A model generated the notes under the pieces. The model saw only the letters and a list, made by a program, of their open reading frames with translations. It was not told the DNA's origin and ran no database searches. This document shows, one piece after another, positions 12,128-43,875 of a stretch of DNA of 64,000 nt; position 1 is the stretch's first letter, and every line of letters begins with the position of its first letter. The DNA lies in NCBI RefSeq assembly GCF_030013205.1, contig NZ_CP122648.1. The stretch is one strand, 5' to 3'. Origin of the DNA: Escherichia coli. GTDB lineage: Bacteria > Pseudomonadota > Gammaproteobacteria > Enterobacterales > Enterobacteriaceae. The translations under genes were made by a program, and so were the position numbers.

Positions 12128-12582
12128 TGTTTTGGGTTTTAACTGTTCCGCGTGCGCTTAGCCGCATTCACCGCATCACAAAATTCACTTTAAAAATGGC
12201 GGCAGAGCAGTCACGGAGTAAAACTGATACCGCCAAACGTCACCAGAAAATTGATAACAGAGGGCGTTGCAGCGGGGTTGTCACTTAAGCGTATGGTCAA
12301 CCTGACAACCCGGTGTCCTCAACGGGGAAGGAATAACCTCGCCATACTTACCGCCGCGCCATTTCGCGGAGTGCCACAACCGGAAGCGCACGGTCGACGA
12401 AAATTTAACGACAGGCTATCTATGAACCAGCTACCTCGCCGTGCGCTTTCGCGTTATGGTCTGACTTTTCAGGGAAATATCCTTTCAGTAAACTGTCAGT
12501 GCCGGATGTTCACCCGTGTCCGGCGCACGCACTCCACCTCACCCGTGGAGAACTCCTTAATTACCAACCCTCAGGAGGGTGA

Positions 12583-16983: not shown

Positions 16984-17793
16984 TCACTTAATTATTGGAT
17001 AACTCACACAAGTATGACCGTTGCTTATCGCATACATTTGGTTTCCCTTAAGATTTACAAATGGAAATGTCGTATACTCATAATTTATAGAGGTCATATT
17101 AAATGTAAGGAATTTATCTTCAAGTTCTAATTTTGTAGAGTGGGCAGGGTATGTTCCTTCATTTTTCATTGTGATAATAAAACCGATAGGAAAAAAATGT
17201 AAAGCACAAATAAATGCCACATGTCCTTCGTTCATAAATGCTACACTTTGAGCGGATATGTGCATTCTGTGTGGGTAAAACCAGTAGTAAATATCATGAG
17301 TTTCCTCAAAACTTGAATTTTTACCCAAAACATAATCCTTTAAAGGTGTATAGAAGGGGCTATCTACGGGTTCTTTTTTACAATCTTCAACTGAAGTTGC
17401 TGATAGCACGTGCCCAATCATAGCCTTAGTGAAAGATATGCTATCAAAAGGTATTCTAATGAATGGATATACATTCATACCATTCATATATCGACTTAAC
17501 TGTTCTTTAAAGGACTTTGTTACATTTTCAATTGCAACATCGAGCCCACCTAATACCTTATTGTTACAGTGGCTGCAAATGGTTCTGAAATAAGAGCCAT
17601 TTTTAGCATTTAATGGTTTAACTGGTTCCTGAATACCAAAAAATTCGCTAACTGTTTTCTGCAAAACAGGGCCTAAGGTTATGGCGCACTTTGGAGGAAC
17701 ATGATCTTTTGTGAGCAAGCCATATTTCCCACAAATATTGCAATAACCTTCAGTAATGCCATTGTGCTTCCATCGTTCACTAATTTTCGTCAT
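16984..17793 (-). CDS. HNH (His-Me finger) nuclease-domain protein with an uncharacterised C-terminal domain
   Basis: 269-aa ORF; CxxC (18/21), DH-x-P (30-33), CxxC-N (73-77); GAGGG SD; AT-rich and antisense to the flanking rightward genes. Confidence 0.6.
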   Translation of the reverse strand: MTKISERWKHNGITEGYCNICGKYGLLTKDHVPPKCAITLGPVLQKTVSEFFGIQEPVKPLNAKNGSYFRTICSHCNNKVLGGLDVAIENVTKSFKEQLSRYMNGMNVYPFIRIPFDSISFTKAMIGHVLSATSVEDCKKEPVDSPFYTPLKDYVLGKNSSFEETHDIYYWFYPHRMHISAQSVAFMNEGHVAFICALHFFPIGFIITMKNEGTYPAHSTKLELEDKFLTFNMTSINYEYTTFPFVNLKGNQMYAISNGHTCVSYPIIK

Positions 17794-18116
17794 TTTTATT
17801 CCCTCAGTAGCATAAGCTATCTATACGTTTTTTAATCCTATCAAAGATACAACTTAACGTCAGGAAAATGATAGTGTTTATCTAAGTAATACAATTAACT
17901 TCAACGCGTGACAGTCTGCTTTTCGCTAAAAGCGGACTAGAAGGTTAGCTTGCGTCGGACTTGGCGTATTTAAAGAAGTGCTGGTGGTGACTGGTTGTTG
18001 TGTTCCATTTCTACAGAACAAAATCACAGAAACTATACCCAATAGTTGTATTGAATCACTGACGAGACAGCCTCATATTTATCAGGACTGGTGTACGTCC
18101 AATACAGGAGGTTGTG

Positions 18117-18206
18117 GTGCTGGTTCTCAAATGTGCGCTGGCTATTGCTGCTGTAATGGCAATTTATTGCCTTGCTGTTGTTCTTATGGATCGCCTTTCT
18201 GATTGA
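18117..18206 (+). CDS. putative small hydrophobic peptide (29 aa, MLVLKCALAIAAVMAIYCLAVVLMDRLSD; GTG start)
   Basis: Perfect AGGAGG SD at 18106-18111, 5 nt before the GTG at 18117; single predicted transmembrane helix; followed by a long hairpin and an intrinsic terminator. Confidence 0.3.
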   Translation: MLVLKCALAIAAVMAIYCLAVVLMDRLSD

Positions 18207-18245
18207 TTTTATATTGGCGAGGTGACGTGAGTTAAGTAGAATTGC

Positions 18246-18332
18246 TGCGGGTGCTTGAGGCTATCTTCCTCTGATGTGTCAGGCATCCTCAACGCACCCG
18301 CACTTAACCCGCTTCGGCGGGTTTTGTTTTTT
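18246..18332 (+). terminator. long imperfect hairpin followed by an intrinsic terminator
   Basis: tgcgggtgcttgagg...cctcaacgcacccgca (18246-18302), then cccgcttcggcggg plus a T-run (18306-18332). Confidence 0.5.
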
Positions 18333-18404
18333 CCTGGCATTCTGGTTTACAATTCGCACGCCAGCCTGAACAACTGGCACCTGCTGCGCCAGCAGAGACA
18401 ACCG

Positions 18405-35158: not shown

Positions 35159-35842
35159 TATGTATTCCCTTGTGATTATAATCTTCATGAATATATCAAT
35201 AAGTGCCGTTATCCAAAAAAAAGCACATTTGGATACTATTCTATGAAGTTCATTTTATTTTAAAGATTACATGCAACAAATATATTTAAAAGATTTCAAA
35301 ATGTTTCTAATCTATTTAATATAATTCGGAATTATGAATTCTAAATATAAATATTCATGAAAATTATAAATGTATATCAATATGTTATGAGTTGAGCGGA
35401 AACATAGGGGGTATCAATGATTGTTGCGCCAAACGGCTGGTGTGATCACGCGCACATTAATGAAGGCATAAAAAAAGCCGGCATCATGCCGGCCCAAAAA
35501 AATAAACAAGACGATAAAAGGCTAATAACGGAAGCATCATGACACAGAATAATAAAAAGGTATAATTGTAATCAGTGCTAATATATTGATTGAATGAATT
35601 AATAAAGCCGATATCAAAGATAAATAAAATCGCTCAAAACGATTTTTCCTGTATTCACTGCCGTTGCGCAAAAATTATCTATTTGTTCAAAAAATGATTG
35701 AGTCTTGACTGGCTCATCCAATGTGGAAAAATGTGACTTTTATCACATAATAGTACTAAGTCTGAATTTTCCGGGTTATCTCAAAATGGAATACGGTTCG
35801 ACAAAGATGGAAGAGAGACTCTCTCGCAGCCCTGGCGGCTAA

Positions 35843-43606: not shown

Positions 43607-43787
43607 TTACCAGGATGATTCTCAAAACAGCACAAATTATCAAAGATGATTTTTTCGGGAGCGATCCCGTTGACGCCAGAGCCACCAAGGGGTGACGCGC
43701 GTCACATTTCTATTCATAAGTAGCGTTAATCATTCATATCACGAATATTTTCTTGTCAGCGAAAAAAATTGCGGATAAGGTGATGAG

Positions 43788-43875
43788 CACATCAGATTTC
43801 CTGGTGTAACGAATTTTTTAAGTGCTTCTTGCTTAAGCAAGTTTCATCCCGACCCCCTCAGAGTCGGGATTTTTT
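43788..43875 (+). ncRNA. dsrA: DsrA small regulatory RNA
   Basis: ...acatcagatttcctggtgtaacgaattttttaagtgcttcttgcttaagcaagtttcatcccgaccccctcagagtcgggattttttt, matching DsrA including its terminator. Confidence 0.85.

Follow-up and report, generated by a model that had tools for sequence, protein, structure and literature searches.

The DNA analysed here, referred to as the window, is a stretch of 64,000 nucleotides (nt) of an Escherichia coli genome (assembly GCF_030013205.1, contig NZ_CP122648.1). The region of interest lies in a lambdoid prophage of the Rac/Qin type and consists of two adjacent elements. The first is a 29-codon open reading frame (ORF) starting at position 18117, and the second is the remnant of a hokD-type hok/sok locus directly downstream. 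The original prediction, made from the sequence alone, had described this region as a small hydrophobic-peptide ORF with its own 3' hairpins, resembling a type I toxin or small membrane-peptide locus. Its features are listed below, and the loci used for comparison are cited by L numbers.

18051-18079, plus strand: candidate sigma-70 promoter of the small ORF, with the -35 element TTGAAT at 18051-18056, the -10 element CATATT at 18074-18079 and a 17-nt spacer
18106-18111, plus strand: Shine-Dalgarno (SD) sequence AGGAGG of the small ORF, read from the sequence, 5 nt 5' of the start codon
18117-18206, plus strand: the small ORF, 29 codons plus stop, MLVLKCALAIAAVMAIYCLAVVLMDRLSD, a predicted single-pass membrane peptide termed type A
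18214-18242, plus strand: intact hok promoter, TTGGCG-N17-TAGAAT, found by promoter scan and conserved in all sampled hokD loci
18249-18271, plus strand: first 23 nt of the hok mRNA with the tac ('translational activator') element GGGUGCUUGAGG, up to the deletion junction, from alignments with the hokD-bearing allele L001 and with RF01794
18268-18271, no strand: deletion junction with CCTC microhomology, 336 bp lost, from the comparison with L001
18272-18305, plus strand: remnant of the hok mRNA 3' untranslated region (UTR) with fbi ('fold-back inhibitory'), the same sequence as L001 3809-3842, which lies past the hokD stop codon
18247-18301, plus strand: tac/fbi stem, the long imperfect hairpin of the original prediction, from the fold of the window
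18306-18332, plus strand: intrinsic terminator of the hok mRNA, with the stem 18306-18312/18317-18323 and a T-run to 18332, at the same place in intact alleles

The SD sequence, the GTG start codon at 18117 and the 29-codon frame were all present in the sequence as predicted. The frame is open to the TGA at 18204-18206, and a second in-frame GTG lies at 18114. Position 18117 was taken as the true start because the preceding codon varies between lineages (GTG, GTC, ATC, TAT, AAC), and because the start codon itself is ATG in L155 and in the pINV plasmids of Shigella and enteroinvasive E. coli (EIEC). The predicted peptide contains an unbroken run of 19 hydrophobic residues (C6-M24), which is followed by the tail DRLSD.

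The coding status of the ORF was examined in a frame-blind sample from IMG/VR. The scan was anchored on the non-coding hok promoter plus tac sequence and gave 79 usable loci. Full-length type A, recognised by DNA similarity, occurred in 20 of these loci and was intact, without stop or frameshift, in 20 of 20. Length variants differed by whole codons, one codon shorter in L155 and one longer in L241. In a permutation test that retained the observed base changes and randomised their positions, type A showed 19 synonymous events compared with 12.5 expected (P=0.02). Changes to a stop, a charged residue or a proline in the membrane segment were observed 0 times compared with 4.7 expected (P=0.004). 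The same synonymous excess was obtained for two other small ORFs found at this position, type B (20 compared with 10.8 expected, P=0.001) and type C (9 compared with 3.8 expected, P=0.002). The conservation of the peptide frame in related prophages, which the original prediction had proposed as a check, thus came out in favour of the ORF.

The translation signals were conserved together with the frame. The start codon varies between GTG and ATG and the stop codon between TGA and TAA among lineages. Most lineages keep the SD sequence (GGAGG, GGAG or GGGGG) at constant spacing, even where the upstream DNA is unrelated, and L112 has TGAGG. Recombination breakpoints fall just outside the unit from SD to stop codon in several lineages. 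In pINV, the hok remnant beside the ORF has decayed, whereas the ORF itself, which starts with ATG, remains intact at 80% nucleotide identity and shows nine synonymous differences. The frame thus shows purifying selection and its translation signals are conserved, and on this comparative evidence the small ORF is quite likely to be protein-coding.

Two other explanations of the conserved DNA were tried and rejected. RNA structure does not account for it, as the hairpins at 18141-18171 are broken by uncompensated substitutions in other lineages. The overlapping Cys-rich 74-aa ORF (17978-18202), which the original prediction had noted in another frame, is present, and it was rejected as a gene: its third positions hold the fewest variable sites (8 of 41), and its N-terminal two thirds lie in DNA not common to the lineages that keep the small ORF. 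All three minus-strand frames across the small ORF are closed by stop codons.

In the window, the candidate sigma-70 promoter of the small ORF agrees with the consensus at 8 of 12 positions and remained under the threshold of the promoter scan. Of 49 distinct sequences upstream of type A, 42 contain the pattern TTGNNN-N17-CATATT, at a distance from the start codon of 36-37 nt in 41 of them and 39 nt in one. The spacers comprise 18 different sequences, and each is exactly 17 nt long. This conservation is the pattern expected of a real sigma-70 promoter. Transcription would start near 18086 and give a predicted leader of about 30 nt. In the predicted fold, the SD sequence takes part in at most a 3-bp helix and is not buried.

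The distribution of type A was determined with the 211 nt around the small ORF. At a coverage of at least 80%, this sequence was present in 1,845 of 5,426 complete E. coli genomes, which is about a third, and the ORF region was also found in four phage genomes. None of the listed genome matches covering the ORF carried a PGAP annotation at it. The ORF is also carried by approximately 140 pINV plasmids of Shigella and EIEC, upstream of icsP and at about 80% nucleotide identity. In one such plasmid (L003, approximately 1473-1760), the intact ORF with its ATG start is followed by what is left of the hok promoter, TTGGCG-N18-TAGAAT, and then by some 50 nt of the hok 5' UTR in decayed form. These elements lie roughly 250-400 nt 5' of the icsP start codon (icsP at 1952), and the hok body is absent. 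BL21 has the small ORF upstream of hokD, with a DUF977 gene on its other side (NZ_CP083273, near 3,397-3,300, minus strand), and O157:H7 has type C at this place. In the K-12 region that was checked, the Qin prophage contains none of types A, B and C, and hokD directly follows relE. This absence from Qin may explain why small-protein surveys of K-12 missed the peptide gene.

Database searches returned a small family. A scan of 100,044 species genomes with a degenerate pattern yielded Escherichia sequence only, namely E. albertii and two contigs of metagenome-assembled genomes that correspond to E. coli prophage. When 1.84 billion representative proteins were searched exhaustively with a profile, only 22 matches were obtained, all within the peptide family and including bridging variants, and an exact-sequence look-up of the peptide returned the same tiny family. 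No meaningful match to types A, B or C was obtained in NCBIfam, PHROGs, PADLOC or Pfam. A literature search found no paper with the peptide strings or with WP_001278450, the type C protein, and the Pro-SMP paper mentions HokD only in passing.

The genes upstream of the small ORF differ widely among prophages. Where they are unrelated to those of the window (DUF977, AAA ATPase, ORF6N and others), the homology begins about 25 nt before the SD sequence and the frame is kept. The ORF had been regarded as one unit with a divergent HNH gene, and this was not upheld, as other prophages have the same ORF after wholly different upstream genes. The ORF forms the right-hand edge of a slot with variable prophage cargo. 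This cargo is an AT-rich 269-aa gene in the window and, elsewhere, an AAA ATPase with an HNH gene, QueH, a KwaB-like gene, or a three-gene cluster of deaminase-like, ITPase-like and SIR2-like genes. The variability suggests that the slot is a hotspot for accessory or defence genes. Many hokD loci retain the last 6-10 codons of type A as a 3' stub directly after queH or an HNH gene. Examples are L130-L132 (E2348/69, strain 2/0 and EC4115; approximately 1180-1210), which end in sequences such as ...MDHLSD*. These stubs show that recombination breakpoints also fall inside the ORF.

The 269-aa gene in the window (16984-17793, minus strand) contains CxxC...DHVPPK...CxxCN motifs and is annotated by PGAP as hypothetical. 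Its HNH label was unconfirmed, with no match in Pfam or PADLOC. The AT-rich islet that was described for this gene and the small ORF together is real over the 269-aa gene (GC 0.32-0.38) and does not extend to the small-ORF region (GC 0.42-0.44).

The hok-anchored sample contained two more small hydrophobic ORFs at the same position, each with an SD sequence. Type B encodes 27 aa (MTWPEAFATMGIAMAVALVVYSICRWG) and type C encodes 34 aa (MSDDISLAMEGALAVIAVVGVYCLVVFLMDRLGN), and the peptide ORFs end 27-62 nt before the -10 element of hok. The genome counts were approximately 1,347 for type B and 674 for type C. Types A and C are homologous, since they have 48-55% common residues despite many third-position differences in the codon-by-codon alignment. 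Type B often starts by overlapping the stop codon of an upstream DUF551 gene as ATGA. A fourth variant, obtained from the profile search, again adjoins a HOK_GEF gene.

Type C is annotated by RefSeq/PGAP in O157:H7 as a hypothetical protein (WP_001278450.1), directly 5' of hokD, whereas type A is unannotated. It has the same orientation and the same place before the hok promoter as the window peptide, and both share the core ALA-x-x-AV-x-x-(I/V)YCL-x-V-x-LMDRL. Type C differs by a five-residue acidic N-terminal extension (MSDDIS...) and by a 22-bp palindrome between its stop codon and the hok promoter. The perfect palindrome, CGATATGGGAATTCCCATATCG, was observed in O157:H7-type prophages at L239 (approximately 1618-1660) and in the IMG/VR loci L158, L160 and L174. 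It remains in L149, L152 and L177, where the peptide ORF has been lost. The palindrome could be an operator or a recombination site.

The hairpin and terminator downstream of the ORF were then compared with related alleles. Both structures are real. The hairpin pairs 18247-18260 with 18287-18292 and 18294-18301, giving 14 bp interrupted by one bulge. Hairpin and terminator jointly fold at -40.7 kcal/mol compared with a shuffle mean of -23.3 (z = -6.2), and 0 of 200 shuffles folded as well. However, their assignment as 3' elements of the small ORF was mistaken, because they are the two joined ends of a hokD-type locus that lacks 336 bp. A megablast search with 17800-18700 against the 5,426 complete genomes gave two classes of 100%-identical matches, all from pig strains. 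The first class is collinear with the window, and the second has 336 bp extra that contain a PGAP-annotated hokD.

In the alignment with the hokD-bearing allele L001, the flanks are 100% identical and the alleles differ at a CCTC microhomology (window 18268-18271). The L001 sequence reads CTTCCTC/AGGCATG...GCCACCTC/TGATG, with the junctions marked by slashes. Among the top matches of a junction-spanning query, the deleted allele was found in seven genomes, and hokD was kept in 10 pig E. coli genomes with 100% identical flanks. Strains with the deleted allele include ETEC1748 and K_EC180. In the intact allele, hokD occupies L001 3619-3774.

The Rfam sok/hok 5'-UTR model begins, with its position 1, at L001 3450 in the intact allele, equivalent to 18249 in the window, and the hok promoter lies 7 nt 5' of it. 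RF01794, which covers the hok 5' UTR and the sok region, matched the intact allele from GGGUGCUUGAGG onward (101.7 bits, E 8.5e-24) and had no match in the window at E<=1. The Hok/Gef reading frame (PF01848) with the overlapping mok is absent from the window and present in the extra 336 bp of L001. In comparison with known hok/sok loci (parB of plasmid R1, hokD), window 18214-18332 is base-for-base identical to PGAP-annotated hokD alleles. The window has no hok or mok frame, no ucb or dcb box, no Sok target and no sok gene. The terminator, like the promoter, is conserved in all hokD loci sampled. In the window allele it is the first terminator 3' of the small ORF, as the stretch from the ORF to the hok promoter contains none. 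The minimum-free-energy fold of the 426-nt hok mRNA of L001 is closed by its first 14 nt and the 3' segment, which are the strands of the hairpin stem in the window. This long-distance tac/fbi pairing keeps the full-length hok mRNA untranslatable (PMC9841398).

It is essentially certain that a hokD-type hok/sok locus lost its body here, and that the hairpin and terminator represent its 5' end (tac) joined to its 3' end (fbi plus terminator); the hok/sok locus of the window is a non-functional remnant. An insertion of the 336 bp into an ancestral hairpin is very unlikely, because these 336 bp complete a canonical hok mRNA. The deletion between the CCTC microhomologies took out ucb, mok, the Sok target and sok gene, the hok coding sequence and dcb. 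The tac and fbi elements, normally paired across about 400 nt to lock the hok mRNA, here form a local 14-bp hairpin. In the window strain, the locus would presumably no longer be able to kill the cell. The remaining hok promoter would yield a hairpin RNA of about 84 nt, and the transcript of the small ORF would stop at the hok terminator as a compact mRNA of about 247 nt. More speculatively, the approximately 84-nt tac/fbi RNA from the orphaned hok promoter may pair in trans with other hok mRNAs; the megablast search gave up to six places per genome, which represent other hok copies in the same genome.

A loss of the toxin by a different route was observed in E. coli YL3 (L133, approximately 1270-1420). 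The hok promoter and tac are kept there, and the rest of hok is replaced directly after ...CTCAGGCAT by unrelated DNA with a KwaB-like gene. L133 was rejected as a second independent clean deletion of hok, as the alignment shows unrelated cargo DNA after tac. Such a scar is ordinary biology, yet the window is a clean case of a microhomology deletion that disarms a type I toxin. It also demonstrates how a 400-nt long-range RNA pairing turned into a local hairpin can mislead structure-based scans.

The relationship between the peptide gene and hok was assessed from their co-occurrence. One of the three peptide types was present in 44 of the 79 hokD loci, and in the other 35 the peptide ORF was absent or represented only by its last 6-10 codons. 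An identical HokD protein was found with type A, B, C or none. The peptide gene is intact without hok in the window and in two other settings. In the pINV plasmids of all four Shigella species, the homology extends roughly 50 nt into the hok mRNA and then stops, and in 11 IMG/VR loci unrelated DNA directly adjoins the stop codon. The peptide is considered independent of hok on the basis of the 35 loci without it, the lack of co-variation with HokD and its persistence where hok has been lost.

Taken together, these comparisons make it probable that the window contains a real small membrane-peptide gene, an independent and non-toxic accessory, beside a disarmed hok/sok locus. We infer that its product most likely functions as an accessory peptide, independent of hok and not toxic. 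The gene would have its own sigma-70-type promoter and a strong SD sequence, and would belong to a family carried by lambdoid prophages of Escherichia and Shigella, normally immediately 5' of a hokD-type hok/sok promoter. Its product would act as a prophage 'moron', that is, a non-essential extra phage gene, tolerated on expression and probably binding a membrane protein. It would be neither a Hok-like toxin nor an obligatory third part of hok/sok.

The peptide resembles the small regulatory membrane proteins AcrZ, MgtS, KdpF and MgrB and the membrane peptides of phage morons in size and in its single transmembrane helix. They also share an independent promoter with an SD sequence and an accessory location in prophages. 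Unlike AcrZ, MgtS, KdpF and MgrB, the window family occurs in Escherichia and Shigella alone, and its position is tied to hokD. Its sole database similarities were sub-threshold matches to the KdpF and SecE helices, which most likely reflect generic transmembrane composition.

Several observations weigh against this interpretation. The family has very few members, all of them from Escherichia and Shigella, and much of its conservation could reflect the recent spread of mobile DNA. The nucleotides of the ORF are no more conserved than the neighbouring hok promoter, and the codon-position skew of type A is weak (variable sites 15/8/18, chi-square p=0.23). The type A and B sets used in the permutation test were chosen with peptide patterns; a DNA-based census of type A found that no broken copies of this type had been excluded from the set. 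At 22-26% identity, type B has no proven homology to types A and C. One type B copy from IMG/VR (L171) has an in-frame stop at codon 3 (TGG to TAG), and it is the sole broken copy among the type A, B and C ORFs examined. Finally, hok follows 89 of 107 type A copies, and so tight a link could mean a functional tie.

The narrow family, the nucleotide conservation no higher than that of the promoter and the weak codon-position skew would fit a non-functional frame, in which the 29 codons are a fortuitous ORF in the conserved left flank of a mobile hok cassette and the conservation results from recent horizontal spread. In variants of this explanation, the DNA is kept because it anchors recombination or acts as an upstream element for the hok promoter. 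The lack of PGAP annotation for types A and B and the 3' stubs left in many hok loci by recombination inside the ORF agree with it as well. A non-functional flank would not be expected to produce a synonymous excess in each of the three types, of which A and C are homologous and the relation of B is unproven. Nor does it account for the 20 unbiased copies without lesion and with whole-codon indels, or for the conservation of the SD sequence, the start codon and a promoter with a fixed 17-nt spacer. The breakpoints just outside the SD-to-stop unit and the intact pINV copy beside a decayed hok remnant also disagree with it. A non-functional flank is therefore regarded as unlikely, and it ranks first among the rivals in confidence, followed by a second type I toxin and then by a partner of Hok.

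According to the toxin explanation, the small ORF itself encodes a type I or otherwise RNA-controlled membrane toxin, and the locus is a present or former toxin pair. The product, at 29 residues, is a small hydrophobic membrane peptide as is generic for type I toxins, and its gene lies right beside a bona fide type I toxin. TisB, Ldr, Ibs, ShoB, DinQ and ZorO are peptides of about 20-35 residues with one hydrophobic helix that are often missed by annotation, and the window peptide matches them in size range and single helix. It differs from them in its acidic C-terminus, its strong and accessible SD sequence and its own candidate promoter, and no antitoxin RNA, long structured leader or sequence similarity to these toxins was found for the ORF. 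Type I toxins typically have leaders in which translation is heavily repressed, and the leader of the small ORF, about 30 nt long with a perfect and largely unpaired SD sequence, is the opposite. The tail is acidic and not basic, and the translation of type B is coupled to that of an ordinary gene before it.

The search for an antitoxin gave a similar result. A minus-strand promoter-like site at 18235-18206 could yield an antisense RNA; the key adenine at the second position of its -10 element is missing in most variants, and the element is absent in types B and C. No Rfam antitoxin or small RNA was found over 18100-18210. An antisense RNA to the small ORF was rejected, given that the promoter-like site is not conserved and Rfam gave no match. 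The antisense small RNA that had been suggested for 18100-18330 was accordingly not recovered over the ORF, and Sok was once present in this interval, within the deleted segment. A comparison of the peptide profile with a Hok alignment by hhalign gave a probability of 0.6% (six of the eight Hok sequences were entered by hand). No DNA similarity was detected between the ORF region and the hok body, and no homology of the peptide to Hok or to any family of NCBIfam, PHROG, PADLOC or Pfam was detected. The small ORF also lies outside the hok transcript. A decayed hok duplicate was likewise rejected, as neither DNA nor profile similarity was found. The initial description as a type I toxin or small membrane-peptide locus is thus correct for the territory and, most likely, for a genuine membrane-peptide gene, while for the ORF itself neither an antitoxin RNA nor homology to Hok was found. 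That the ORF is a toxin appears clearly improbable.

The least probable rival, a functional partner of hok/sok that was orphaned here by the deletion and that modulates Hok insertion or pore formation, or shields the cell from read-through Hok in lytic growth, draws on the linkage to hok in 89 of 107 type A copies, on the 44 hokD loci with a peptide type 27-62 nt before the hok -10, and on the fourth variant beside a HOK_GEF gene, with both products being inner-membrane peptides; it is highly improbable in view of the 35 hokD loci without such an ORF, the identical HokD found with any type or none, and the peptide genes that stay intact where hok has been lost.

A broader proposal concerns the peptides of 27-34 residues as a group. 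Types A and C, and perhaps B, would form an unrecognised, actively expressed family that has its conserved site immediately 5' of prophage hokD and that works with hok/sok or with the variable cargo slot, for example by tuning Hok action or the membrane physiology between phage and host. We give this proposal a small chance, between those of the non-functional flank and of the toxin. If it were true, the window would represent a natural 'peptide only' allele, whose mRNA is capped by the tac/fbi hairpin and the hok terminator.

For the preferred reading of an independent accessory peptide, the mostly unannotated conserved gene is a more useful result than the hok scar, and types B and C extend it to many more genomes. 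If translated, the peptides would constitute a new family among the small membrane proteins of pathogenic E. coli prophages, which raises the question of why they are kept beside hokD. A conserved but uncharacterised small gene of this kind is a modest lead.

The prophage neighbours of the small ORF include YdaT-family and DUF977 genes. Downstream of the hok terminator, the following genes were located.

18685-19740: DUF968/YdfU-like gene
19741-20106: rusA
20097-20771: antiterminator Q gene

A further ORF of 92 aa (18405-18683, plus strand) lies between the hok terminator and the DUF968 gene and encodes a hypothetical protein (WP_063085027.1). Its position is conserved in many prophages, and K-12 and BL21 have rem in that interval. 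Between the divergent 269-aa gene and the small ORF, an 11-bp inverted repeat was observed at 17913-17938 (AGTCTGCTTTT-CGCT-AAAAGCGGACT). It is unlike a terminator, because a T-run follows it on neither strand. Elsewhere in the window, matches at the Rfam gathering threshold were obtained for DicF (12197-12248, minus strand), three clustered tRNAs 3' of the Q gene (22037-22343, plus strand), RseX (35470-35558, minus strand) and DsrA (43786-43872, plus strand).

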